Source: Roseibacillus sp.
GTDB taxonomy: Bacteria > Verrucomicrobiota > Verrucomicrobiia > Verrucomicrobiales > Akkermansiaceae
Length of the DNA stretch: 64,000 bases
NCBI GenBank assembly: GCA_965242925.1
Contig: CBDEUM010000029.1
Location: 128,001-192,000 of the forward strand
Direction: 5' to 3'
Part shown: positions 5,808 through 19,536 of the stretch, in pieces
How positions within the stretch are numbered: position 1 is the stretch's first letter
Layout of the letters: each line of letters starts with the position of its first letter
Made by a program: the position numbers and the translations under genes
Notes under the pieces: generated by a model
Told to the model about the DNA's origin: nothing
Database searches by the model: none
The model's input: only the letters and a program-made list of their open reading frames with translations

Positions 5808-7120
5808 GCCAGCACCTCCCTGATCGGTTCCGAGTGGTCTTCCACGTGATGGAAGTTGGGCAGGGCGGGGATGTTGAATTCTCCGTGTGGGTCGATGTCG
5901 AGGGCAGAGAAGATGGTAGCGAAGAGATTCTGTTCGTTGTGGGCCTGCCCGGTCACGTCGATGCCGAGTTTGTCGGTGGTTCCCACCACCGCACCCTGTG
6001 CAATTCCGCTCCCGAACATACTGAGGCTCCAGGCATTGGGATAGTGGTCACGGCCGCGGGCGGCATTGAGCCAGGGGGTCCGTCCGAACTCCCCCATGGC
6101 CACCACCAGGGTGTCCTCCAGCATCCCGCGTTGTTCGAGATCCGTGTGGAGCTGGAAGAGGATGTTGTCGAGGTCCGGCACCACCATCTGGTAGATCTCG
6201 TGGTTGAACACGTGGCAGTCCCAGGGCATTCCGTTGGCCACCATGACGAAGGGAGCCCCCTCCTCCACCAGGGTTCGGGCCAGGAGAGTGTGCTGCCCGA
6301 AGGTTCCCGGACCGTAACGTTCCCGGTCCTTCCGCGGTAGTCGTTCGAGGTCGAAGAGGTGGGCGCAACTCATCAGCCCCTTGACGCGCTCGTAGACCGC
6401 ATTGTGGGAGGAGGCGGCCTCGCTCCTGGTATCGTTCTCGAACTTCTTGCTGAAGAAACTACGGAGCTCCTCCCGGGCCTCGTGATCCCCGGTGGTGATG
6501 GAGTCGAGTTTGTTGACATGCGGGATCCCGAACTCTCCGCCGGTGCGTACCGGTGCGTATTCCGCACCGAGCCATCCGGCCCAGTTGCCCGCCTTGAAGC
6601 CCTTGAACTCATTCCCTTCCGGGCAGGGATCGAGGAGAATGAAGTTGGGCAGGGCGCTTCCGAGCTGGCCCAGTTGCCGGGAGAGGACCGAGCCGAGGGT
6701 GGGGCGGGTAAAGGGTGGTCGCGGTTTGTGTCCGCGCTGCAGGAGATTGATGGCCTGGGAGTGTTCGCGGGCACTTGTCTTCATCGAGCGGATAACCGCC
6801 GTCTTGTGCGCGATGGAGGCGCACTTGGGCATGAGCTCGCTGAAGTGTACTCCGGGGATGGAGGTTGGAATGGAGCCGAAGGGTCCGCTGGTGGGTGTTC
6901 CCGGCTTGGGATCCCAGGTCTCGAACTGACTCGGCCCCCCGCAGAGCCAGAGGAGGATGCAGCGTTTCTGCTTCTTCTTGGCGGTCTCGGCAAAAACGGG
7001 ATTGGAGAAGAGGCCGGACCAGCTGAAGGTGGAGATTGCGCCCGCGGTCAGTCCTTCCAGGAAGCGTCGGCGGTGAAGGCCGTGCTCCGGGCTGCCACAG
7101 TCCTGTTGCTCTCCGCCCAT
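5804..7120 (-). CDS. DUF1501 family protein with Tat signal
   Basis: HRRRFLE, GGPSQFETWDPK, WDCH, GEFGRTP, GRDHY. Confidence 0.9.
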   Translation of the reverse strand: MGGEQQDCGSPEHGLHRRRFLEGLTAGAISTFSWSGLFSNPVFAETAKKKQKRCILLWLCGGPSQFETWDPKPGTPTSGPFGSIPTSIPGVHFSELMPKCASIAHKTAVIRSMKTSAREHSQAINLLQRGHKPRPPFTRPTLGSVLSRQLGQLGSALPNFILLDPCPEGNEFKGFKAGNWAGWLGAEYAPVRTGGEFGIPHVNKLDSITTGDHEAREELRSFFSKKFENDTRSEAASSHNAVYERVKGLMSCAHLFDLERLPRKDRERYGPGTFGQHTLLARTLVEEGAPFVMVANGMPWDCHVFNHEIYQMVVPDLDNILFQLHTDLEQRGMLEDTLVVAMGEFGRTPWLNAARGRDHYPNAWSLSMFGSGIAQGAVVGTTDKLGIDVTGQAHNEQNLFATIFSALDIDPHGEFNIPALPNFHHVEDHSEPIREVLA

Positions 7121-9189
7121 CAGTGGTTCATCCGGAATTCGGCGCTGTTGAAGAGGGCCCAGAGGACCTGCCGGATGGCAGCAATCCGGCGGTCCGGTCT
7201 ATTTTCGAGATAGGAGATGCTGCGTTGGCGTTCCCCGGAGTCCGGGGCGCGGTTGAAAACAGTCAGGAAGAGTTCTTCCACCACCCCGCGGTTGTCCGGG
7301 TTCCTGTTGAGGCGGGCGGGCAGGGGCAGTTCTTCAGCCCGGAGCATTCTGTCAATTACTTCACCATTGGCGGCAAACATGGCCTGCTGCACGGAGGGCG
7401 AGAAGACCTCGGCAAAGATGTCCGGGTAGGTTGCCACGAAGGAACCGCGGTAGTCGCTTTCCTGCCCGACGGTTCCATCTTCCCGGACCTCGCTACCCAG
7501 GGAGACCAGGATGGAACGGAAGAGCGGTTCGGCCGGCAGCGGCTTGTCGAGGGCGCGGGCAAAACTTTCCGGGAGGGGTGGCACCTCGCCCGGGTGCACG
7601 GTGGAGAGGCCATAGGCCCGGCTGGTGAGAATGGCCCGGCACAGCCGGCGCAGGTCGTAGCCGTTGTTGGTGAAGTCCCGGGCCAGCCATTCCAGCAGTT
7701 CCGGGTGGCTGGGGGGGTGAGCCGAGTTCATCTTGTCCACCGGGTGCACGATCCCCCGTCCCATCAGGATGGCCCAGAGGCGGTTGACGAGGGCGCGGGC
7801 GAAGGCGGGGTTGTCCTCGATGGCAATGCGGGCCAGTTCCCTGCGGCGGGAGAACTTGGGAAGGGGAGTCTTCTCCACGTTGGTGGTGATCTTCGGCTTT
7901 TCTCCCTTCTTCTTGGGCTTCGGTGGATTGATCCAGTCTGCGGGCGGAGCAACAGCATAATTCTCCGCAGCGTCCTTGTCGCGGCGTCCGCCTGGTTCCT
8001 CCACCACGTGACCAGTAAGGAATACCAGCTCACTCTCACTGCTCTCACCTTCCAGGTTGGCGAACTTGTTGTATCCGCCGGCCGCACGCTCTCCGAGTCC
8101 CGGGCCTGCCTTGGTGTTCACGTTGCGTGTCCGATCGAAGAAGGCGACCAGCCCCCAGTAGTGCTTCTGTTCGATCTCGGGAGCGACCGGATGATCGTGA
8201 CACTGGGCACACTGCAGTTGCTTTCCAAAGAGGGCGGTCGAAGTGGCGTTGGCCATCCTGCCGGCATCGTCGCCTTGCTCATAGAGAAACCAGGCGGCTC
8301 CCTGTTCCTGCGGACTCTGCGGTCGAGCCACGATGAAGTCGTGCCCCACCTTGTTCCAGGGACGGTTTGTTTCGAAGGCCCAGCGCAGGTAGGGCAGGAA
8401 GTGCTTTTCACGGTCACCCCGGCTCTTGCCCCCACCCTGCGCCCGTCCTAGCAGGGCGGCATTGAAGACTTCGGCGAAGTGCCGGGCGTGGGCCTTGCTC
8501 GCCAGAAGATCGTCGAGGAGGAGGTCACGTCGGTCGGAGCCCGTTTCCGCCAGGAAGCGGCTGCGTTCATGCCTCGTCGGAATCCGACCCAGGAGATCCA
8601 GGGTGACCCTGCGCAGGAAGGCGGCATCGCCAATGGGAGGGGCGGGGGCGATGTTTTTCTCCTTCCAGGAGTTTTCCAGCAGGGTGTCGATTGCGATAGT
8701 CGGCATGAGGCCGGGCGGGAGGGGCCTCGCCGGTTTGGCCGGGCCGGGGCCGGGAGCCACATCTTCCGGTCGTTTGAAACGGATGACCCAGTCCCGGATC
8801 CGGGAAATATCTCCCTCGTTCAGCTGGCTCTTTGGCGGCATGTGGGGATCGGCCTCGGGATGAAGCTGGGTCACGAGCCGGCTCTGGTCCGGCCTGCCGG
8901 GGAGAAAGGCCGGGCCGCTGTCACCGCCCTTGAGCAGACTCTCCAGGGAACGCAGGTCGAGTCCGCCTTTCTGTTTCGCCCCGCCATGACACTTGCTGCA
9001 GTGTTCCTTGAGCAACGGAGCCAGACTCGCAAACTGGTCGGCCCTGCCATCCGCGGAGACGAACAGCAGAGTGAGAATGATGACAGGGCTGATCCTCAAG
9101 GAAGCAGAAAGAATAGCGAACCCCGCCGCCGGCGCAATTGGGGAATCCGGCCAGTTGGAGTCCCCACTGTTTCGGTGGTGTTTTTCCAA
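7120..9189 (-). CDS. Planctomycete cytochrome c + DUF1549 + DUF1553 protein (start uncertain)
   Basis: CSKCH, LRRVTLDLLGRIPT, CAQCHDHP, NRLWAILMGRGIV, HPELLEWLA. Confidence 0.88.
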   Translation of the reverse strand: MEKHHRNSGDSNWPDSPIAPAAGFAILSASLRISPVIILTLLFVSADGRADQFASLAPLLKEHCSKCHGGAKQKGGLDLRSLESLLKGGDSGPAFLPGRPDQSRLVTQLHPEADPHMPPKSQLNEGDISRIRDWVIRFKRPEDVAPGPGPAKPARPLPPGLMPTIAIDTLLENSWKEKNIAPAPPIGDAAFLRRVTLDLLGRIPTRHERSRFLAETGSDRRDLLLDDLLASKAHARHFAEVFNAALLGRAQGGGKSRGDREKHFLPYLRWAFETNRPWNKVGHDFIVARPQSPQEQGAAWFLYEQGDDAGRMANATSTALFGKQLQCAQCHDHPVAPEIEQKHYWGLVAFFDRTRNVNTKAGPGLGERAAGGYNKFANLEGESSESELVFLTGHVVEEPGGRRDKDAAENYAVAPPADWINPPKPKKKGEKPKITTNVEKTPLPKFSRRRELARIAIEDNPAFARALVNRLWAILMGRGIVHPVDKMNSAHPPSHPELLEWLARDFTNNGYDLRRLCRAILTSRAYGLSTVHPGEVPPLPESFARALDKPLPAEPLFRSILVSLGSEVREDGTVGQESDYRGSFVATYPDIFAEVFSPSVQQAMFAANGEVIDRMLRAEELPLPARLNRNPDNRGVVEELFLTVFNRAPDSGERQRSISYLENRPDRRIAAIRQVLWALFNSAEFRMNH

Positions 9190-9204
9190 CCCGGGGGATG
9201 AACG

Positions 9205-10362
9205 TCAGGGGGATGTCGTGCGGACCGCGAAGAATCCCGCTGGGCCGGCGATGGGAAAGTCCCTGGTGATTACTCCCATTGTGCCCGCGATAGTAGCCCG
9301 TTCCTCCCATTGATCGTGTGATAGCGCCGGGTCGGGAGTAAAGAGGACGGTGTAGGACTGGGTGTCGAGGGCGTCCCAGCTCAGGCGAACCTGACCGTCC
9401 GGAAGGCGGGCGATATCCAGGATCGGCACGACCAACGGCGGTGTGCTCGCGGGCGTGAGATCGAAGGTCACGCCGGGATTCTGGCTCTGGACAGTGACGG
9501 TGAAGGCGTTTCCGCTGTCGGAGATCCAGGCGGCGGCATCACCTGAGTCGAATCCGTCGGTGAAGATCGATTCGGTCACCAGGGTTTCCAGCCTGATGTC
9601 GAGGTTCTCCTCGACCGTGATCTCCAGAGTCCGTTCGAAGTCGACCTTGATCCGGCCGGGGTTAATAGAAGTGATGTCGGTGAACCCGTCGTAGCCGGGT
9701 GCGAATTCATCGTCGAACTCGGGTTCGGGGCCGGATGTGGAGTCGAATTTCGCACTCCCGAACAGTTCGGTGATCATTTCGCCGGTCTCAAGTTCCCCCA
9801 CATTGACGCGGAAGGAGGCCCCCACATCGCCGACGATGCCGCTGCTGACGGGGTCGACCAATTCGAAGTCCTGCTCCAATTTGATGTCGAGGGTGATATT
9901 CTGAATGCCCGGTTCAGGATCATGGGCCCTGAAAATAGTCCTGTTCTGACTGCTGGTCGCGATGAAGCGGGCGGGGGTGGATCCTGGTGGGGGTTCGCTC
10001 GAGAGGGGGAACATGCTTACCCGGCCCTGGTGTTCGATGCTGAACCGGGGGATTCCGGTGGCCCCGGCAGAGTTCACCTCCACCGAGGCGAAGACAGGTT
10101 CGAGGGGATCGAAGAACTCCGGCGGGATCGTGATTTCCTCAAAGAGATTGATTGCCGCCATGGAGGCGCCGCTTCTTGTGCGGTTGAATCCTCCCACCTC
10201 GACGCCATTGAATCCGAAGAACGAGAAGTCGGCACAGGAACCGGGAGCCCCGGGCGCGAGATTTGCGAAGAACTGCGGGCAGGAGCCCTGGGCCCGGGCA
10301 CTGACCGGTAGTCCCAGCGAACATGCGGTGCTGGCCAGAAGGAGTGGGATCCGGAGGTTCAT
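9205..10362 (-). CDS. Secreted acidic hypothetical protein with C-terminal beta-rich domain
   Basis: Signal peptide ending ARA-Q, long acidic ORF, C-terminus ending GFFAVRTTSP. Confidence 0.75.
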   Translation of the reverse strand: MNLRIPLLLASTACSLGLPVSARAQGSCPQFFANLAPGAPGSCADFSFFGFNGVEVGGFNRTRSGASMAAINLFEEITIPPEFFDPLEPVFASVEVNSAGATGIPRFSIEHQGRVSMFPLSSEPPPGSTPARFIATSSQNRTIFRAHDPEPGIQNITLDIKLEQDFELVDPVSSGIVGDVGASFRVNVGELETGEMITELFGSAKFDSTSGPEPEFDDEFAPGYDGFTDITSINPGRIKVDFERTLEITVEENLDIRLETLVTESIFTDGFDSGDAAAWISDSGNAFTVTVQSQNPGVTFDLTPASTPPLVVPILDIARLPDGQVRLSWDALDTQSYTVLFTPDPALSHDQWEERATIAGTMGVITRDFPIAGPAGFFAVRTTSP

Positions 10363-10467
10363 ACCGCGGGTTGCCCCTCTGTGTTCGCGAGGTGGTGCGT
10401 GATGTTCATGCTGCCTCGTCTATCAGCTTTCCGGGTGGGCGCAGGTTCGCTGGAGCAATGATCAGGA

Positions 10468-11931
10468 CTACAGGAGGATATCCTTGATGGGGTAGGCATC
10501 CTCCACGCCGGTCAGGCGTTGCTGTAACCCCTGGAACGGGAAGCGGAAGCGGTGATTGTCGATACCCATGCAGTGGAGAATAGTGGCGTTCAGCTCGTTG
10601 AGGTGAACGGGTTTTTCCGTGACATTGTAGCTGAAGTCATCGGTTTCTCCGTGGGAGAGGCCTGCCTTTATGCCGCCGCCAGCCATCCACATGCAGAAAT
10701 TGCGGGGGTGGTGGTCGCGACCGTAGTTCTCCTTTGTCAGTTTGCCCTGGCAGTAGGCGGTGCGCCCGAATTCACCGCCGAAAACAACCACCGTGTCCTT
10801 CAGCATTCCTCTTTCCTTGAGGTCCTTGATAAGGGCGGCGGTTGGCTGGTCAACGTCAAGGCACTGGTTCTTGATCTCCTTGGGCAGGTTGCCGTGCTGG
10901 TCCCAGCCGCGGTGGAGAATCTGCACCACCCGGACCCCACGTTCAATGAGACGGCGGGTGAGGATCGCCGAATGGGCAAAGCTGCCAGGCTTCTGGACAT
11001 CTGGCCCATACCTCTCGAGGGTTGCCTTGCTCTCTTTGCCAAGGTCAGTCAGTTCGGGGACACTGGTTTGCATCCGGAAGGCCATTTCGTACTGGGCAAT
11101 GCGGGTTTGTGTCTCGGGGTCCCCGAAGCGCTCGAAAGCCCTGCGGTTCAGCTGGCCCAGGGCGTCGAGCATGGCACGCCGGTCGCCAGGCAGCACCCCC
11201 GGGGGATTCTTCACGTATAATACCGGATCGCCGGCGCTGCGGAGCTTCACTCCGTCATACTTGGAGGGCAGGAAACCACTGGTCCACATGCGGGAGAACA
11301 ACGCCTGGCTCGGGTTCTTGACGGTCGGGGTGAAAACCACGAAGGCGGGTAGATTCTGGCTTTCGCTGCCAAGGCCATAGCTGAGCCAGGAACCGAGGCT
11401 GGGCTTGCCGGGCACCTCACTGCCGGTCATCACGAAGGTACAGGCCGGGTCGTGGTTGATGGCCTCGGTGTGGACCGATTTGATCATGGTGATCTCGTCG
11501 GCGATGCCCTTCATGTGTGGAACCAGCTCACTCATCAGGATGCCCGACTGTCCACAGCGCTCGAAGGCGAACCTGCTGGGAGCCACGGGGAAACGTTTTT
11601 GCCCACTGGTCATGGTGGTGATGCGTTGACCGTTGCGGACCGAATCGGGAAGTTCCTTGTCGAAGAACTTCTCCATCTGGGGTTTGTGGTCGAAGAGGTC
11701 CTGCTGAGCCGGAGCGCCGTTCATGTGCAGGTAGATGAGGTTCTTGGCCTTGGGCGCAAAGTGAGGGAGTCCGGGCAGGGCCGGATGGATATCGGGGCCT
11801 GGAGTGGGCTTGGCGGCAAGGCCTCTCTGGGCGAGGAGCTGGGCCAGGGCGATACCCCCTACCTTGAGACCGGCTCCCTGGAAGAACCGGCGACGGGATT
11901 GGAGGTGATGAAATTCGAGGGCAGGATCCAT
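10468..11931 (-). CDS. DUF1501 family protein with Tat signal
   Basis: SRRRFFQ, INHDPA, WDQH, GEFGRT, GRDHHP. Confidence 0.9.
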
Positions 11932-11938
11932 GGTGGGG

Positions 11939-14900
11939 TCAGTTCTTGTTTACGACCTCGTCAAGATTGAGGAGCAGGTTCGCCACGAGGGTCCAGGCGG
12001 CCAGGTCATTCTGCTTGAGGGCGGGATCGGGTTTACTTTCGCCGAAGGCAATGAGTTGCTCGGCAGCTGCAGAGTCAACGGCGAAGCGGTTCAGGTGTGT
12101 CTGAAGCGCCTTCAGCACGATTTTTGATTCTTCCGGATCAGGGTAACGGGCGGTGACAAGCCGCCATGCCCAGCGGACACGGTCCTCAGCATTTGTTCCG
12201 CCTTCCTTGAGAATGCGCTGGCCAAGGGCGCGTGCTGCTTCGACGTGTTGAACATCGTTCATCAGCTGCAGGGCCTGCATCGGGGTGTTGCTGCGGCCAC
12301 GTGCCGAGCAGCTTTGTTCGCGGTTGGGTCCATCAAAGGTGGCCATGAAGGGCGGCGGAGCGGTGCGCTTGAGGAAGGTATAAAGGCTGCGTCGATACAG
12401 GTCCTCCCCCTTGTCCTGCTTGTAATTGCGCGTGTTGCTGGAGGCAAAGCCGACCGGTTCCCAGATATTGGGGGGCTGATAGGGCCTGACACCCCGGCCT
12501 CCGATCGTAGAGACCATCAGTCCGCTGAGGTTCAGGGCCTGATCACGGATGACCTCGGCATCCAGTCGATGCCGTGGTCCCCGGGCCAGGAGACGGTTTT
12601 CCGGATCCTTTTCCCGCAACGCGGGCGAGGCCGCGGAGCTTTGGCGATAGGCATGACTGGTGAGGATGCGCGTCACCAGTCGCTGAATATCCCAGCCATC
12701 TTCCATGAACTGTAAGGCCAGCCAATCGAGCAGTTCAGGGTGGCTGGGCAACTCTCCCTGGGTGCCAAAGTCTGCGCTGGTTTTCACCAGGCCAGTACCG
12801 AAGAACTGCTGCCAGAAACGATTTACCGCGACGCGTGCGGTGAGCGGATGTTGTCCGTCGACCAGCCAATTGGCCAGGTCCAGCCGGTTGTAATCGCCAT
12901 CCTTTGGTTTGGGCGGAAGCGGCGGCAGGAAGGCAGGTACGTTGCGGCTGACCTTCTCTCCGGGGTTATCATACTGCCCGCGTTTCATCACGAAGCTCTC
13001 CCGTGGCTTGGGCAGGTCGGCCATCACGAAGGTCACTGCGGTGTTTTTGCCGATGGCATTCTTCTCGGCCACCAGCTTTGCCTTTTCGTCATTGAGTGGT
13101 TTCAGCGTATCCTTGGCCCCCTTGTAGATCCGGCCGAGCCAGTGCAGGAAAAGGCGTTTTTCCTGGGACTCCGCCCATTCGCCGGGCTTCTTTCCCTTCA
13201 CGAGCTTGCGTAGTTCCTCGTTGAGATCCTGTTCGCGCTCATTTTCCTTCTGCGCTTTCCACGCTTTCCATGAAAAGACCGGGTCGGTGACAGGGTTGGT
13301 GGTGACGTGGCCCCCGGATTGGTCCCAGTAGACCTTGCCGTCAAACTGGGTGTAGGCCCAGCCGTTGAGCTGGGCACCCGGCTTGAGGCCCACCTGCTCG
13401 ACGTCGACCTCAAGGCGCACCCATTTCCCGGTTTCTGGCAGGTCGCCCATGCGCCGCCGGCTGACGGAATCGTTCTGGCCCCACTCGATCTGGTTGCCTC
13501 CCCAGTAGGCGCGGTGTTCCCACGTCCCGTCATTGAACTGCAGCATGATCTGTTTCGGGGGATTGGTTGCATCGAGGTAAACATGCGCGAACAGCTTCAT
13601 GCCATCCTCGATGACCAGGGGAGGGTTGGCACCGGTGAAGTAGTGCTGGCTCAGGCCCTTGGCCTCCCGGACGCTCGCCTTGACCCCACTGAAAACCGGT
13701 TCTGGTGGACTTACGAACTTCCATGGGGTGTTACCTTGCGCGGCAGCCTTGGCGGGCAGGGCATCCTCGATCCACACCGTCTCCTTCGTGGTTGGCGGGG
13801 GCGGTTTGCTGAGGTCTGCCGGGTCGTTGTAGTCAATCCCTGTTACGGCTTCCGTGATGCGTTTTTCGACCGCCTGGATCTTCGAATCCAGAGCCGCGAG
13901 CTTTTCCTGCGCACCTGGCAGCGGCACGCGGATAACAGGTGGAGTGTCCAGCTTGTTCCCGTCCAGGGCAGGGTCGGCGGTACTGTGGAAGAAGGAATAC
14001 ATCGAGTAATACTCGTTCGTGGAAATAGGGTCAAATTTGTGGTCGTGGCATACCGCGCAACCAGCTGTCAGTCCCATCCACACCTCCACTGTCGTCGAAG
14101 TGCGTTCCACGGCATTGCGATAAATCCATTCAGCATTGATGCTGCCTCCTTCTCCGGTGGTCACATTACAGCGGTTGAATCCCGAGGCAATTTTCTGATC
14201 GATGGTCGCCCCGGGCAACAGGTCTCCAGCCAGTTGCCAGCGGGTAAACTCATCGAACCTGATGTTCCGGTTGAACGCCCGCACCACCCAGTCGCGGTAG
14301 GGCCACATCGAGCGCTCGTTGTCGAGGTGCAGGCCATGGGTGTCGGCGTAGCGCGCGAGGTCCAGCCAATAGCGTGCCATGTGCTCGCCGTAGGACGGGC
14401 GCTTCATCAGGCTAGTGATCAGATTTTCCAGCGCCCGGGGGGAGTTGTCCGTGAGAAAGGCGTCTACTTCCTCCGGCCTGGGAGGCAGTCCAGTGAGATC
14501 CAGGTAGACACGTCGAATGAGTGTTTCGGGCCTGGCCAGCGGCGCGGGCTCCAGGCCTTCCTCTGCCAGGCGCTGCTGCAGGAAGGCGTCAATCGGATTT
14601 GCCACCCCCTTGGGCACCGCGGGAGGCTTCGGAGCTGTGAAGGCCCAGTGATCCGCATACGGCGCACCTTGCAGGATCCATTGCTTCAGGATGTCCTTTT
14701 CCGCATCGGAAAGTTCCTTATGTGAATCCCGGGGAGGCATCACCTCGTCCTCGTCTTCCGAGAGGATGCGAACCCATGCTTCGCTGTTCTCCAGATCCCC
14801 GGGCACAATGGCTTGCACACCATCGCGTTCAGCAAGAGCCGATTCACCTTGGTCGAGGCGCAGCTTGGCTTTGCGCTTTTTTGCGTCCTGACCGTGACAG

Positions 14901-15016
14901 GCAAAGCAATTTTCCGAGAGGATGGGCCGGATATCACGCGTGAAGTCCGGGGCGGTCGGGGCGGCTTCAGTCAGGAGACTCGCGCCCAGGACTGGAACGA
15001 TGATGGTTCTCATCAT
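11939..15016 (-). CDS. Planctomycete cytochrome c + DUF1549 + inserted domain + DUF1553 protein
   Basis: [45 protein letters not shown]. Confidence 0.9.
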
Positions 15017-15148
15017 TGGATGGGAGAGAGTATCACCACGTAACGCGGGGTAAAGGGAGGAACTGAGCGCAGGGAGGCGGCTCTGCAGGAATCCTGCGGG
15101 GGCATGTGCCAGAGAGCTTGAAACGGCATTGTAATCGCGACCGTTGTT

Positions 15149-16027
15149 TCAGATTTCCGTCACGATCTGCTTCAGGTAGTCCGCCAGTTCCGGGCCGATA
15201 TCCTCACGCCTGAGGCCGAACTCGACGTTGGTCTTGATGAAGTCGAGCTTGTTTCCGATGTCGTAGCGCTTGCCGTCAAAGCGGAGGCCGTAGAGTCCGC
15301 GTTCCTGCAGCATGAGAACCATGGCGTCGGTCAGCTGGATCTCGCCATTCTTGCCCGGTCCGGTCTCCTCGAGGTAGTTGAAGATCTCGGGGCGCAACAC
15401 ATAACGGCCGGCAATAGCCAGGTTGGAGGGAGCCTCTTCCACGGAAGGCTTCTCGATGAGCTGGTCGATCTCAATGATGCCGTTACCGCGGTTCTCTCCA
15501 CCCGCGATACCGTAAAGGGGGACCTTTTCGCGCTCCACTTCGTCGAGAGCAATGACGGATTCCTGCTGGTCCTCGTAGATGTCGATCATCTGCCGCAGGA
15601 TGGGCCGGTCCGGGTTATTACTGCTGAGAAGGGTATCACCGAGGAGGAGGGCGAAGGGCTCGTGGCCCACGAAGGTGCGCCCGTAGGAGACGGCATCGCC
15701 GAGTCCGTTGAGCTCCTTCTGCCAGACAAAGTGGATGGAGGCCATGTCCGAGATGCGGCGGATCTGTTCGAGCAGCTCCGTCTTGCCCTGTGCGTCGAGC
15801 GCCAGTTCCAACTCGGTGGCGGGGTAGAAGTGTTCCTCGATGGCGCGTTTGCCGCGGCCGATGACCATGAGGATGTCGGTGATGCCACTGTGCACGCATT
15901 CCTCCACCACGTACTGGATGGTGGGGGTGTCCACAATGGGCAGCATTTCCTTGGGCTGCGACTTGGTGGCGGGCAGGAAGCGGGTGCCGAATCCGGCGGC
16001 TGGAATGACGGCTTTGGTGACGGGCAT
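15149..16027 (-). CDS. galU: UTP--glucose-1-phosphate uridylyltransferase (GalU family)
   Basis: KAVIPAAGFGTRFLPATKSQPKEMLPIVD, LLGD, EKP, GEIQLTDA, RYDIG. Confidence 0.93.
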   Translation of the reverse strand: MPVTKAVIPAAGFGTRFLPATKSQPKEMLPIVDTPTIQYVVEECVHSGITDILMVIGRGKRAIEEHFYPATELELALDAQGKTELLEQIRRISDMASIHFVWQKELNGLGDAVSYGRTFVGHEPFALLLGDTLLSSNNPDRPILRQMIDIYEDQQESVIALDEVEREKVPLYGIAGGENRGNGIIEIDQLIEKPSVEEAPSNLAIAGRYVLRPEIFNYLEETGPGKNGEIQLTDAMVLMLQERGLYGLRFDGKRYDIGNKLDFIKTNVEFGLRREDIGPELADYLKQIVTEI

Positions 16028-16143
16028 CGGGAGGAAGGGGCAACCGGGGCGGCTGGCCACCGGGATGCCGGAGGTATTGGAATCCTGCAGGATGAGGGAG
16101 GCAAGGAGGAACTGACCCGCGGGGGCAGGCTACTCCGTCGCTG

Positions 16144-17151
16144 CTATCGGCTTTCAGGTTCGATGATCGGCTTGATGACCTCCACTCCGAGCCTGCCCAG
16201 CCCGGTTTGAAGGGCCGCGAACATCTCGTCACCGTCGTAAGTTCCCACGATGGCTCCTCCGGAGCCGGTGAATTTGGCGGAGGCTCCCACCGAGCGGGCG
16301 GTTTCCACCATGGCCAGGTTGCCGTCCGACAGGCGATAGAGCGATTTGCGCAGGTCGAAGTTGCGGTCCAGAAGCGGCCCGATCCGGGAGCCCTTCCCGC
16401 TGGTGAGCAGGTCGCGGCATTGCTGGGTCAGATCGGCCCACTCTTCCATGGCGGCCACCACGTCGGGTTCCCTGCGGTGAAAGCGGCCGCGAATATCATT
16501 GTGGAAGACTTCCGTGCCCTCCGAGAGCCTCGTGCTGTAGGCGAGGTAGAGTGAAGGCAGGGTCTTGGGATCGAGTTGCTCGTAGGCACCGTGACCCATT
16601 TGCTCGAAGTGCTTTTCGGCGAAGTCCATGAAGACCACTCCTTCGTAGGCCTGGACCACACGGTCCTGCAGCCCGGCCGGGATGCGAAGCTCGTCGGTCT
16701 CCACGGAAAGAACGAGGTTGGCCAGAGTGGGAGGGGTGATGCTTACATCGTAGAACCGCATGAGGGCCCGGAAGCAGGCGGTGATGATCGCACTTGAACC
16801 CGCCATGCCGACGTGGGGCGGAATGTCGCTGCTGTAACGGAGGGTAAAGTTCCGGGAGTGCAGGGAGATCCCGTTCTCCCCGCAGTGATCGTGGAAGCGT
16901 TTCACCGAGGCCTTGAGGAGACGCAGTCCGCCGTAGTAACCGAAGGTCCGGGTGTCCTCCACGAGATCGGACAGGCTCCCGAAGAGCATCTCGTCGCGGC
17001 GCGCAGGCTGGATTTCCAGATCAGGCGACTCCCAGAGGGAAACCCTGGCCGAGAAATTCCTCACGAGGAGGGAGATCGTCTTGCCGTGGAAACCGTCGGA
17101 AGGGTTCCCGATCAGGCCGGCACGAGGATACGAAGCGGTTTTGATGACCAT
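16144..17151 (-). CDS. GHMP kinase, glucuronokinase-like
   Basis: RAGLIGNPSD, GYYGGLRLL, IPPHVGMAGSSA, AGLQDRV, AKFTGSGGA; start placed at ATG 17151. Confidence 0.82.
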   Translation of the reverse strand: MVIKTASYPRAGLIGNPSDGFHGKTISLLVRNFSARVSLWESPDLEIQPARRDEMLFGSLSDLVEDTRTFGYYGGLRLLKASVKRFHDHCGENGISLHSRNFTLRYSSDIPPHVGMAGSSAIITACFRALMRFYDVSITPPTLANLVLSVETDELRIPAGLQDRVVQAYEGVVFMDFAEKHFEQMGHGAYEQLDPKTLPSLYLAYSTRLSEGTEVFHNDIRGRFHRREPDVVAAMEEWADLTQQCRDLLTSGKGSRIGPLLDRNFDLRKSLYRLSDGNLAMVETARSVGASAKFTGSGGAIVGTYDGDEMFAALQTGLGRLGVEVIKPIIEPESR

Positions 17152-17241
17152 CGACGGTAGTGGTCTACATCGTGGGGTCCGAATTGGGAATCGTGAAAAT
17201 AATTGGATTTGTGCCAATCGGTCTCCATGGCAAGAGAGGGC

Positions 17242-18039
17242 ATGGAAATGAAGGAGACCATCGATTGGGAGGGCAAGGGCCTGATTGGAGTGGTGCACCT
17301 GCAACCTCTGCCAGGCTCGCCGCGTTACCGCAGGTCGATGAGGGAGATCTGTGCAGCAGCGGTGGTAGATGCGCAGGCCTACGAGGAGGGAGGGGCGCAG
17401 GGCCTGATGATCGAGAATTTCGGCGACCTGCCCTTTACCCGCGGGGCGGTGGCACCCGAGACCGTGGCGGCCATGACAGTGGCGGCAGAGTCAATCAGGG
17501 CTAAGGGTGTGCAGCTTCCTCTCGGATTCAACGTCCTTCGGAACGATGCGTCCTCGGCGTTGGCCCTTGCCGCGGCCTGCGGAGGAGCGTTTGTGCGGGT
17601 CAATGTTCATACCGGAGCGGTGGAAGCGGACCAGGGGATCATCCAGGGAGAGGCCTACACCACGTTGCGCAAGCGCGCGGCGCTTTGTCCGGAGGTCCAG
17701 ATCTGGGCCGATGTGCTGGTCAAGCATGCGGTGCCCATCGGGGATCTCGGAATCGAGGAAACTGCACGGGACACCTTTCATCGTGGACTGGCGGATGCCC
17801 TCATCGTGTCCGGAGTGGCCACGGGGGCGGCGACGGGAGTTGACGATTTGCGACGGGTGAAGGGGGCCTGCCCGGAAGCTCCCCTGCTGGTGGGCAGCGG
17901 GGTGCGGGCCGACAACGTCGGGGAGTTGCTGGAGTATGCCGACGGGCTGATTGTGGCGTCCTCCCTGAAGGTGGATGGAGTTCTCGCCAACCCGGTAGAT
18001 GTGAAGCGGGTGAGAGAGTTGAGGAAGGCGATGGGGTGA
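17242..18039 (+). CDS. BtpA/SgcQ family TIM-barrel protein
   Basis: IGVVHLQPLPGSP, IENFGDLPF, GFNVLRND, ADVLVKH, VGSGV. Confidence 0.9.
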   Translation: MEMKETIDWEGKGLIGVVHLQPLPGSPRYRRSMREICAAAVVDAQAYEEGGAQGLMIENFGDLPFTRGAVAPETVAAMTVAAESIRAKGVQLPLGFNVLRNDASSALALAAACGGAFVRVNVHTGAVEADQGIIQGEAYTTLRKRAALCPEVQIWADVLVKHAVPIGDLGIEETARDTFHRGLADALIVSGVATGAATGVDDLRRVKGACPEAPLLVGSGVRADNVGELLEYADGLIVASSLKVDGVLANPVDVKRVRELRKAMG

Positions 18040-18122: not shown

Positions 18123-19118
18123 TCAATCCGCTGGAAACGGATTGGCGCTCGAGCGCAGGTTGATCTCTTCCGGTGAGGAGAGGCTGGAGAGGTGGTCTGC
18201 GCGGTGGCCGGAATCGGCTGCAAGGGTTAGTCGGGCAGGTGAGAGGCGGACCACGGAGAGACCAAGGGAGGCGCTCACCGTAAAGAGGAGGGCGGCCCCG
18301 ACGAGGAGAGAATGCTTGGCCCGGCGGCGGCAAACGACCCGTTCGACCCGGGCACGCAGGGGAGCCCGGCCTGCCATGGCGAGGGCGGCCTGGGGGAGGG
18401 TGCCGGCTTCCGCGATGTCGCAGAGGGCGGTGGCATAACGGTCCGGATCGGTTCCCAACGCGATGACCTTGGCATCGCAGGCAAATTCGCACTGGGCGAT
18501 GAGCCGGGAGCGCAGCCACCATACCAGCGGGTTAAACCAGTAGACCAGACAGGCGCACTGGGCGGCCAGATTGGTCCAGAGGTCGCGGCGAGCCACGTGT
18601 CCGAGTTCATGCAGGAGGACCATACGCAGGGTGCCTTCGTTCCAGTGGACACTACTGGAGGGGAGATAGACCACCGGGCGGAAAAGGCCGGCGATGAAGG
18701 GCGACATGCATTGTGGATGCAGGCGCACCCGGATCCTGTGGCGCAGACCCAGCTGCAGGCGACAGTTTTCCAGAGTACGCTCCATCAACGGCTTCCCGGC
18801 ATCCACCGACCTGGCTCGCCAGCGATTGAGCGAAACGAAGTCGGCTGCCAGGCGCAGGGTGAAGAGGAGAAATCCTCCCATCCAGAGGAGGGGGAACCAT
18901 GAGATGGTTGCGGAGACGGCCCCAGGTTGCGCCGGCGCCGTCAGGGCGGGAAGTTCCACCATCAACTTGGGCAGTTGCGCCAGGAAGGGCAGAGCCAGAA
19001 GCGTGAGGAGGCTGCCCAGGGTCAGAAGGGGAGACTGGGCCGGATCCCGTCGACCGGTCAACCAGACGGCCAGAACCGCGAGAAGCGAAAGAGCGGCACT
19101 GGTGAGAAGAAGGGACAT
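18123..19118 (-). CDS. M56 family metallopeptidase (BlaR1-like), no C-terminal sensor domain
   Basis: TM helices, HELGH zinc motif, YWFNPLVWW, EFACD; directly downstream of blaI-like gene. Confidence 0.9.
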   Translation of the reverse strand: MSLLLTSAALSLLAVLAVWLTGRRDPAQSPLLTLGSLLTLLALPFLAQLPKLMVELPALTAPAQPGAVSATISWFPLLWMGGFLLFTLRLAADFVSLNRWRARSVDAGKPLMERTLENCRLQLGLRHRIRVRLHPQCMSPFIAGLFRPVVYLPSSSVHWNEGTLRMVLLHELGHVARRDLWTNLAAQCACLVYWFNPLVWWLRSRLIAQCEFACDAKVIALGTDPDRYATALCDIAEAGTLPQAALAMAGRAPLRARVERVVCRRRAKHSLLVGAALLFTVSASLGLSVVRLSPARLTLAADSGHRADHLSSLSSPEEINLRSSANPFPAD

Positions 19119-19164
19119 GGTCTGAAGGAGTGGTCGCTGTTCAGTAGGCAGAGCGTCGCCGGAT

Positions 19165-19536
19165 CTACTTTTGCCTGATCAATTCCCGGATGCCGTCGAT
19201 TTCCTTCTTGCTGAGCTGCTGGTCGCACGGATCGAGCAGAGCGGCTACCAGGTTTTCCGGTTTCCCTTCGAAAAATGTGCGCAGGAGGCTGTCGAGGGCC
19301 GTGCGTTTCGCCTTTTTCGGGGACTTGGCTCGGTAGACGTAGCGCCGGCCCTCCTTCGAGTGGCTCACCATCTCCTTCCCCTCCAGGGTGGCCAGCAGGG
19401 CCCGCACGGCTGAGTAGGATGGAGGATCGGGCAGGCTCTCCTGGACTTCCTTGGCGGTGGCCTGGCTCAGGCGGTAAAGAATCTCGAGAATCTGGCGCTC
19501 GCGGCGCGAGACTTGCCCTTTCTCGAATCGGTTCAT
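19165..19536 (-). CDS. BlaI/MecI/CopY family transcriptional repressor
   Basis: SRRERQILEILY, PPSYSAVRALL, KEGRRYVY, LLRTFFEG. Confidence 0.92.
   Translation of the reverse strand: MNRFEKGQVSRRERQILEILYRLSQATAKEVQESLPDPPSYSAVRALLATLEGKEMVSHSKEGRRYVYRAKSPKKAKRTALDSLLRTFFEGKPENLVAALLDPCDQQLSKKEIDGIRELIRQK

Follow-up and report, generated by a model that had tools for sequence, protein, structure and literature searches.

A glucuronokinase-family kinase and a variant GalU encoded side by side in Roseibacillus sp.: a candidate two-step route to UDP-glucuronic acid

Many capsules, exopolysaccharides, and envelope glycans are built with UDP-glucuronic acid (UDP-GlcA) as the donor, and UDP-xylose and UDP-galacturonate derive from it. 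The textbook bacterial route to it is a single one, in which GalU acts first and UDP-glucose dehydrogenase (Ugd) second. Does a locus of Roseibacillus sp. (Verrucomicrobiota; Akkermansiaceae) encode another? The locus lies in a 64,000-nucleotide stretch of contig CBDEUM010000029.1 (assembly GCA_965242925.1, positions 128,001 to 192,000), hereafter called the window, and consists of a gene for a GHMP kinase and a co-directional galU gene downstream (Table 1). The original prediction, made from the sequence, was that the kinase is a plant-type glucuronokinase and that the pair salvages free D-glucuronic acid (GlcA) as UDP-GlcA. In this study, the prediction was followed up by homology searches, phylogeny, synteny counts, and residue comparison.

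By homology, the kinase is a member of the glucuronokinase family (EC 2.7.1.43, KEGG K16190). Its only Pfam match is a general domain, GHMP_kinases_N (PF00288; 46.8 bits, cut-off 22.3, residues 78-171), and the phosphate-binding motif P-x-x-x-G-[LM]-x-S-S-A is present as PPHVGMAGSSA at residues 111-121. It reaches no curated NCBIfam family, scoring 49 bits against a required 163 for mevalonate kinase, 34 against 600 for HddA, and 19 against 443 for GalK. The nearest solved structures by sequence are HddA (the best, E 7e-6 over 80 residues) and mevalonate kinases (E about 1e-5), all of them partial matches. In contrast, identity to the kinase/pyrophosphorylase fusion of Danio aesculapii (P0172) is 48% over 308 aa (E 2e-95), and the two halves of a tandem-duplicated plant glucuronokinase from Ambrosia (P0121) match at 41% over 333 aa (E 5e-74) and 44% over 275 aa; these comparators are close relatives of assayed enzymes and not the assayed proteins themselves. 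A search among longer proteins returned animal sequences named "glucuronokinase with putative uridyl pyrophosphorylase" at 45-50% identity and 89-99% query cover. Grouping with HddA or GalK, which would have spoken against the original prediction, was not seen.

The five motifs named in that prediction were all found at the expected place in the translation: GNPSD (residues 15-19), GYYGGLRLL (71-79), AGLQDRV (159-165), MDF...GHGAY (175-190), and KFTGSGGA (293-300). The Ambrosia counterparts are GNPSD, GYYGGVRLL, AGLQDRV, YMDF..GHGEY, and KFTGSGGA, and the motifs recur with some substitutions in the Danio fusion. An alignment of the kinase with eight bacterial and three animal relatives contains 72 invariant columns, most polar residues included. 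GNPSD is invariant in this alignment; it is contained both in GLIGNPSDGFHGK of the window kinase and in VGFLGNPSDVYFGR, a peptide sequenced from the purified glucuronokinase of Lilium (PMC2823444).

A FastTree phylogeny of 47 sequences, rooted at the midpoint without an outgroup, placed the plant, protist, and animal kinases in one clade and the bacterial kinases in the other. The term "plant-type" is therefore retained as a matter of family homology, but not as a position in the tree, where the bacterial kinases are sister to the eukaryotic clade and not inside it. Because they form a separate clade, the substrate of the window kinase is read from 41-50% identity and is not bracketed by assayed enzymes. 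GlcA is the predicted substrate. The Arabidopsis glucuronokinase is reported to be strictly specific for D-glucuronate; the same paper notes such genes in a few bacteria, and a figure legend names Verrucomicrobium spinosum, Solibacter usitatus, and Dyadobacter fermentans (PMC2823444). Verrucomicrobial homologs have thus been in print since 2010. The close homologs of the window kinase come from Akkermansiaceae, Roseibacillus, and Verrucomicrobiales assemblies, and the close bacterial homologs are named glucuronokinase by JGI and GHMP kinase by NCBI.

The linkage of the kinase with galU was surveyed in 301 sampled genomes of the phylum, among them the window genome, with a GalU-family match defined at E 1e-40 or better. 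The kinase occurred in 76 genomes (44 of 149 genera) and a GalU-family match in 82. The match lay within 500 bp of the kinase and on the same strand in 57 of the 76 kinase genomes, downstream in 54 and upstream in three (two of these three partial); in the remaining ones, it was on another contig (15), far away on the same contig (2), or absent (2). GalU matches of at least 230 bits were found in 71 genomes, and the kinase is present in 70 of these. A single one of the 225 kinase-less genomes reaches that score; weak matches (169-205 bits), for the most part in frames of about 650 aa, occur in seven more. Both genes are missing from the 22 sampled genomes that represent the other main genus in the family of the window genome. 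Within the phylum, GalU is thus an accessory gene accompanying the kinase and not a housekeeping gene.

The pair is conserved far beyond this lineage, which bears out the linkage that the original prediction had proposed to follow by a synteny survey. A scan across phyla, with one genome per species, returned 559 kinase loci, the best 80 of which were inspected for neighbors. galU was directly downstream of the kinase in 58 of the 80 and about 500 nt downstream in one; 20 had no galU within the flanks and one ended too early. These 80 loci came from Verrucomicrobiota, Pirellulales, Phycisphaerae, Sedimentisphaerales, Kiritimatiellia, Lentisphaerae, Victivallales, Bacteroidales (Bacteroidota), Saprospiraceae, Hydrogenedentota, one Chitinivibrionales record, and others. 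The cultured Rufibacter tibetensis 1351 has the best plasmid match of the window GalU on its plasmid 1 (NZ_CP012644.1), where a gene annotated as a GHMP kinase (45% identical to that of the window) is located directly upstream; the kinase and the GalU are WP_062546164.1 and WP_062546163.1. Beyond galU, clustering of open reading frames (ORFs) over the 80 loci yielded no neighbor in more than 13 loci, and the 13-locus cluster was discarded as antisense open frames over the kinase. Recurrent clusters included PAP2, ArnT-like, and GT2-type families in Bacteroidaceae/Bacteroidales loci (L076, L097, L105). The BtpA/SgcQ gene beside the window kinase was considered as a third member and rejected, as it is next to the kinase only in the window and in its three closest relatives (L036-L038); elsewhere it was found in none of 29 phylum loci within 1.5 kb and in none of 77 of the 80 loci.

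The two kinds of domain are also joined in single proteins. Six clusters of GalU-kinase fusions (P0123, P0125, P0127, P0218, P0227, and P0239; 603-633 aa) comprise 13 member sequences from NCBI, JGI, ENA, and Logan. A GalU-like domain is N-terminal and a glucuronokinase-type domain C-terminal; this order is opposite to that of the operon, so the fusions are not read-through artefacts. The GalU-like domain is 35-41% identical to the window GalU, with Cys at the position of Thr132 in all six clusters and Asp at position 111 in five, and the fusions were placed on the bacterial side of the kinase tree. Thirteen seemingly full-length fusion matches on metagenome contigs were rejected as ordinary kinase-then-galU pairs without a single open frame.

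The GalU partner was compared with characterized relatives. It scores 350.7 bits against the NCBIfam model TIGR01099 (galU; cut-off 326.8), matches NTP_transferase (PF00483), and has no match to UDPGP (PF01704) at E up to 0.001. Its best solved relative is Bacillus subtilis YngB (284 bits). Of the predicted UDP-glucose ligands listed for YngB (PMC7961091), all are kept in the alignment except Asp134, a reported glucose contact, which is replaced by Thr132. The uridine, phosphate, and Mg ligands (G12, G14, K26, E27, Q103, G108, D131, E192, and K193) are conserved. In the Pseudomonas enzyme, Asp131 helps to hold glucose and the alanine mutant is nearly inactive; the equivalent residue of Klebsiella GalU is Val and is non-essential (PMC11796359).

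Position 132 distinguishes the partner GalUs from the controls. Among 83 GalUs of kinase loci, it is Thr in 78, Ala in three, Cys in two, and Asp in none, and it is Thr or Ala in five unlinked GalUs of kinase-bearing genomes. Eight control GalUs, from plasmids of eight genera and without a kinase beside them, have Asp (5), Met (2), or Val (1). A column comparison of 81 partner GalUs, which are mutually related, with these controls, which are plasmid-borne and only eight in number, gave positions 132, 111, 177, and 206 as discriminating. Position 111 is Asp in 95% of the partners and the His of GLGHAV in 7 of the 8 controls. Positions 177 and 206 flank glucose backbone ligands, and 111, 177, and 206 all lie beside ligand-binding residues. 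We read this pattern as the signature of a remodeled sugar pocket, which is not proof of a new specificity.

A GalU-like domain of another kind was observed in five loci (L146-L150, from genomes G376, G409, G309, G367, and G312). It is the N-terminal part of frames of about 650 to 1100 aa, is 32-35% identical to the window GalU (170-205 bits), and has His in place of Thr132 (motif GDH). No kinase is present in these loci, and some of the genomes carry the kinase on another contig. These frames form a separate GalU-like subfamily.

A third gene accompanies the pair in Planctomycetota. In nine loci, a protein of about 315 aa of the short-chain dehydrogenase/reductase (SDR) type is encoded directly after galU, the only real recurrent neighbor besides galU. 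No NCBIfam model claims the protein. Its closest solved relative is a Klebsiella entry deposited as a dehydratase, and the second-ranked is the Bacillus cereus UDP-glucuronic acid 4-epimerase (233 bits, E 4e-68, full length; entries 6ZLL, 6ZLD, and 6ZLJ; PMC11519531). The epimerase MoeE5 follows with 180 bits amid UDP-glucose 4-epimerases. The SDR keeps Ser-Ser-Ser 126-128, Tyr149, Lys153, Thr178, and Arg185 in the alignment; Thr and Ser residues together with Arg185 are described as gripping the substrate carboxylate (PMC12338863). An order of kinase, GalU, and UDP-uronate epimerase would be the expected look of a uronic-acid activation operon. The sugar-pocket change, the GalU-kinase fusions, and this epimerase-like gene provide new support for the predicted use of glucuronate-1-phosphate (GlcA-1-P) by the GalU.

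The metabolic setting of the pair was examined in the window genome (42 contigs, 4.58 Mb). A second galU, which the original prediction had proposed to look for, was not found above the cut-off; the window GalU is the only one to exceed it. A TuaD-based search at E 1e-50 or better detected no Ugd-like gene in this genome, and matches in 248 of the 301 phylum genomes. The only nucleotide-sugar dehydrogenase resembles UDP-ManNAc dehydrogenases (Cap5O, 246 bits) more than UDP-glucose dehydrogenases (at most 125 bits). As no UDP-glucose dehydrogenase-like gene was found, the kinase-GalU module may be the main source of UDP-GlcA here. Across the phylum, a Ugd-like gene is present in 40 and absent from 36 of the 76 genomes with the kinase, and present in 208 and absent from 17 of the 225 genomes without it. 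Among the 44 kinase-bearing genera, Ugd-like genes were missing from every sampled member in 15, present in all in 26, and mixed in 3. The enrichment of Ugd absence fits a module able to replace the dehydrogenase route, and over half of the carriers have both, as plants do.

The window genome also encodes a homolog of myo-inositol oxygenase (MIOX) outside the window. Genes of the typical DUF1501, PSD1, and DUF7133 kinds surround it, which gives it the look of a native gene and not of a contaminant. Of the 301 phylum genomes, only this one yielded the homolog, and it was not found in any of 14 control genomes; MIOX was therefore rejected as a general partner, since it cannot explain the distribution of the module. 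GalE, RmlB, Gmd, and Fcl are encoded as well. Gmd/Fcl-like genes lie a few kb from the Cap5O-like dehydrogenase, which suggests a glycan biosynthesis cluster. The only UDPGP-like stretch of the genome is a weak one (41 bits) at the C-terminus of a 1069-aa protein encoded on another contig, the start of which is overlapped by the preceding gene for a 297-aa degenerate GalU-like NTP-transferase; three sulfatase genes flank the two.

The spacing of 116 bp that had been given for the pair is exact. It is longer than the gap of most relatives (usually 5-70 nt); in the three closest ones, the gap measures about 119 to 232 nt. The start of the kinase is consistent with the starts of the relatives in the alignment. 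No promoter-like site was predicted in 14900-17400, the region spanning the kinase and galU. Two terminator-like sites were predicted there (mean of shuffled sequences, 1.9), both inside the coding region of galU and none in the spacer, and the spacer has no Rfam match. Both genes are partly covered by contigs from RNA libraries (three studies, four runs). One of these contigs, 607 nt long, runs from the kinase end across the spacer into the beginning of galU; it shows 21 differences and 6 gaps and so derives from a strain variant. These contigs are compatible with co-transcription of kinase and galU, which we presume, although assembled contigs cannot prove a single transcript, DNA carry-over is possible, and a lack of cover is uninformative. 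The stretch itself was detected in metagenomes of 14 studies, from seawater and marine sources. Short motifs, GGAGGAACTGA and GGAATCCTGCAGG, are common to the spacers after galU (15056-15100) and after the kinase (16079-16131) in different order; their number does not exceed chance (5 matches, 1.8 expected; 3 of 100 shuffles reached 5), and they are probably meaningless.

The firm elements of this picture are the two family memberships, the conserved pair, its joint distribution, the variant signature, and the fusions; the sugar acted on by each enzyme and the fate of the product are what we infer. We consider it somewhat probable that the kinase and the GalU variant form a two-step salvage route from GlcA to UDP-GlcA, with enzyme activities predicted from homology. 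With ATP, the kinase would phosphorylate free D-glucuronic acid at C1, and the GalU variant would then join GlcA-1-P and UTP to give UDP-GlcA, which would feed glycan synthesis. The free GlcA could come from polysaccharide breakdown or from the MIOX encoded elsewhere in the genome. Such a module would be the bacterial counterpart of the plant route of glucuronokinase (GlcAK) and UDP-sugar pyrophosphorylase (USP) and of the fish fusion, but with a GalU-type pyrophosphorylase. A bolder version, to which we give limited credence, is that the Thr132/Asp111 variant is a dedicated or strongly preferring UDP-glucuronate pyrophosphorylase and that the pair may be the sole route to UDP-GlcA where UDP-glucose dehydrogenase is absent, fed here by a MIOX of a kind rare in bacteria, as a complete plant-like myo-inositol oxidation pathway in a marine verrucomicrobium.

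Several points weigh against this proposal. On the side of the kinase, the bacterial enzymes fall outside the group delimited by assayed plant and animal kinases in the unrooted 47-sequence tree, and no assayed bacterial member of either family, kinase or partner GalU, was found in open-access papers and preprints, with subscription journals uncovered. In the animal fusion, the nucleotidyltransferase domain is unrelated (22% identity to the window GalU, E 0.003), and its pyrophosphorylase activity was not demonstrable in vitro in the published work (PMC3938481). On the side of the GalU, the window protein exceeds the curated cut-off and keeps every other ligand residue, and the partner variant has gained no positively charged residue. 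The GalUs of Escherichia coli, Klebsiella, and Rhizobium likewise lack the Asp, with Val or Met instead, and still use glucose-1-phosphate (PMC11796359), so the loss of Asp alone does not alter specificity. The window GalU is the sole one in a genome that also has GalE; hence, it may still make UDP-glucose. A uronate isomerase is encoded, so GlcA can also be catabolized, and no consumer of UDP-GlcA (UXS or UDP-GlcA epimerase) was found in the window genome, the assembly of which is 89.9% complete. Finally, 40 of the 76 kinase genomes carry a Ugd-like gene, and the statistic overstates the inverse relation, as related genomes are not independent.

Three other explanations were weighed against the proposed GlcA salvage. 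The pair may be a coupled kinase and pyrophosphorylase module for another sugar, such as galacturonate, glucose, galactose, or xylose, yielding the matching UDP-sugar. The conserved pair, the joint distribution, and the fusions argue for a coupled module whatever the sugar, and the separate clade of the bacterial kinases, the closeness of the GalU to true UDP-glucose enzymes (284 bits to YngB), and an epimerase that equally suits a galacturonate-first route would all agree with it. We regard it as unlikely in view of the 72 invariant columns shared by bacterial and animal kinases, most polar residues included, and of 41-50% identity to enzymes reported to be strictly GlcA-specific (PMC2823444, PMC3938481). 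Moreover, plant galacturonokinase is reported to have almost no identity to GlcAK (PMC2823444), and the enrichment of the module in Ugd-less genomes fits a uronate product.

A true glucuronokinase might instead be merely co-regulated with an ordinary UDP-glucose pyrophosphorylase, with GlcA-1-P handled by another enzyme or having another fate. The high TIGR01099 score, the lone GalU in a GalE-bearing genome, the UDPGP-type domain inside the 1069-aa protein, and the ability of enterobacterial and rhizobial GalUs with Val or Met at position 132 to use glucose-1-phosphate are in its favor. This explanation appears rather improbable against the near confinement of GalU to kinase genomes in the phylum (70 of 71). 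A Ugd-like gene, whose product uses UDP-glucose, is present in 208 of the 225 kinase-less genomes and such a GalU in only one; these Ugd-bearing genomes presumably make UDP-glucose otherwise, so GalU is not the housekeeping enzyme of the phylum. The partner-specific residues and the fusions point to substrate hand-over, and no other pathway consuming GlcA-1-P is known according to the zebrafish paper (PMC3938481). That the adjacency is fortuitous, without a functional tie, is very hard to credit. The spacer is longer than that of most relatives and co-transcription is compatible with the data only, but same-strand adjacency in 57 of 76 phylum genomes and 58 of the 80 best loci, together with the fusions, contradicts it.

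Two-step salvage modules in which a sugar kinase stands beside or is fused to a nucleotide-sugar enzyme include Bacteroides Fkp (fucokinase/GDP-fucose pyrophosphorylase), AmgK-MurU, and HddA-HddC. The kinase-GalU pair has the same architecture as these modules, whereas the kinase and transferase lineages and the sugars differ (34 bits to the HddA model). With the plant route from MIOX through glucuronokinase (Arabidopsis GlcAK1, At3g01640, and Lilium; EC 2.7.1.43) and USP to UDP-GlcA (PMC2823444), it shares the kinase family and the two-step logic, and the window genome has a MIOX homolog like that route. Distinct from the plant route, the partner is a bacterial GalU-type protein of about 290 aa and not the eukaryote-type USP (Pfam UDPGP family), the genes are an operon-like pair, and MIOX is not generally associated (1 of 301). 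Zebrafish and Xenopus have a bifunctional protein, glucuronokinase and putative UDP-GlcA pyrophosphorylase (DrGKUP); in zebrafish, its kinase domain is specific for GlcA and is joined to a short nucleotidyltransferase of bacterial type (PMC3938481). The window kinase is 48% identical to that kinase domain, as judged from the Danio aesculapii relative, and is likewise coupled to a nucleotidyltransferase; the animal nucleotidyltransferase is N-terminal in one polypeptide and belongs to a different subfamily from the window GalU. The canonical bacterial enzymes (B. subtilis YngB and GtaB, P. aeruginosa and K. pneumoniae UGP, and E. coli GalU) have the uridine, phosphate, and Mg ligands in common with the window GalU. 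They differ in that Thr132 stands where YngB has Asp134 and PaUGP has Asp131, Asp111 stands where the His of GLGHAV is found, positions 177 and 206 are changed, and the window-type gene travels with the kinase in the phylum.

Table 1. Features of the kinase-galU locus, of the rest of the window, and of the genome outside it
Feature	Position	Strand	Basis or remark
Glucuronokinase-family GHMP kinase, 335 aa	16144..17151	minus	ORF and translation, homology-supported ATG at 17151
Spacer from kinase stop to galU start, 116 nt	16028..16143	minus	sequence
GalU-type UTP--sugar-1-phosphate uridylyltransferase, 292 aa, kinase-partner variant (Asp111, Thr132)	15149..16027	minus	ATG at 16027, TIGR01099
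Four-gene PSCyt/DUF1501 run	7120..15016	minus	132-nt spacer after galU
BtpA/SgcQ family gene	17203..18039	plus	285 bits
BlaR1-like M56 peptidase, preceded by BlaI/CopY-type repressor gene	18123..19536	minus	
MFS transporter/acyltransferase fusion, 1005 aa	22587..25604	plus	
Myo-inositol oxygenase homolog	contig C9:108528-109547 (L160:9529-10548)	plus	PF05153, 379-380 bits; outside window
Cap5O-like nucleotide-sugar dehydrogenase	contig C14:366944-368173		outside window
Gmd/Fcl-like genes	contig C14:372-376 kb		outside window
1069-aa protein with UDPGP-type stretch, and overlapping GalU-like gene	contig C14:543422-547509 (L203:2923-7010)	minus	outside window

The surroundings of the pair are typical of Verrucomicrobiota and Planctomycetota, with PSCyt/DUF1553 and DUF1501 genes downstream and a divergent BtpA/SgcQ gene upstream. 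The four-gene run directly downstream of galU has PSCyt1/PSCyt2/PSD1 proteins (1025 and 689 aa) at its ends and, between them, a DUF1501 sulfatase-like protein (487 aa) and a 385-aa ORF without a Pfam match; its first gene is kept after galU in the closest relatives. The BtpA/SgcQ gene is 51 nt from the kinase. Beyond it, a BlaR1-like M56 peptidase (331 aa), which lacks the sensor-domain length of true BlaR1, and a BlaI/CopY-type repressor (123 aa) make up a signal-transducing pair of protease and repressor. The MFS transporter/acyltransferase fusion scores 483 bits against a model of the acyl-ACP--phospholipid O-acyltransferase/LplT type, below the cut-off, and is probably a lysophospholipid recycling protein.

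The kinase family, the plant and animal pathways, and homologs in a few bacteria have been published. A search of open-access papers and preprints, with subscription journals uncovered, found no paper on a bacterial glucuronokinase enzyme or on the kinase-GalU pair. New here are the almost exclusive co-occurrence of GalU with the kinase within the phylum, the control-tested residue signature, the GalU-kinase fusions, the epimerase residues, the inverse relation to Ugd, the combination of MIOX presence with Ugd absence, and a cultured plasmid-borne example. If the proposal is true, a kinase-based salvage route exists in hundreds of genomes (559 loci in one scan), and the reconstruction of glycan precursors in metabolic models of marine and soil polysaccharide degraders would change. 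For a kinase family in which the partner domain of the animal fusion resisted assay, it would supply a functional pyrophosphorylase, and it would add a compact bacterial kinase/pyrophosphorylase pair for one-pot synthesis of UDP-GlcA. A dedicated UDP-GlcA pyrophosphorylase would be a new specificity inside the GalU family, and the route would change the explanation of how genomes without the dehydrogenase make uronic-acid glycans.

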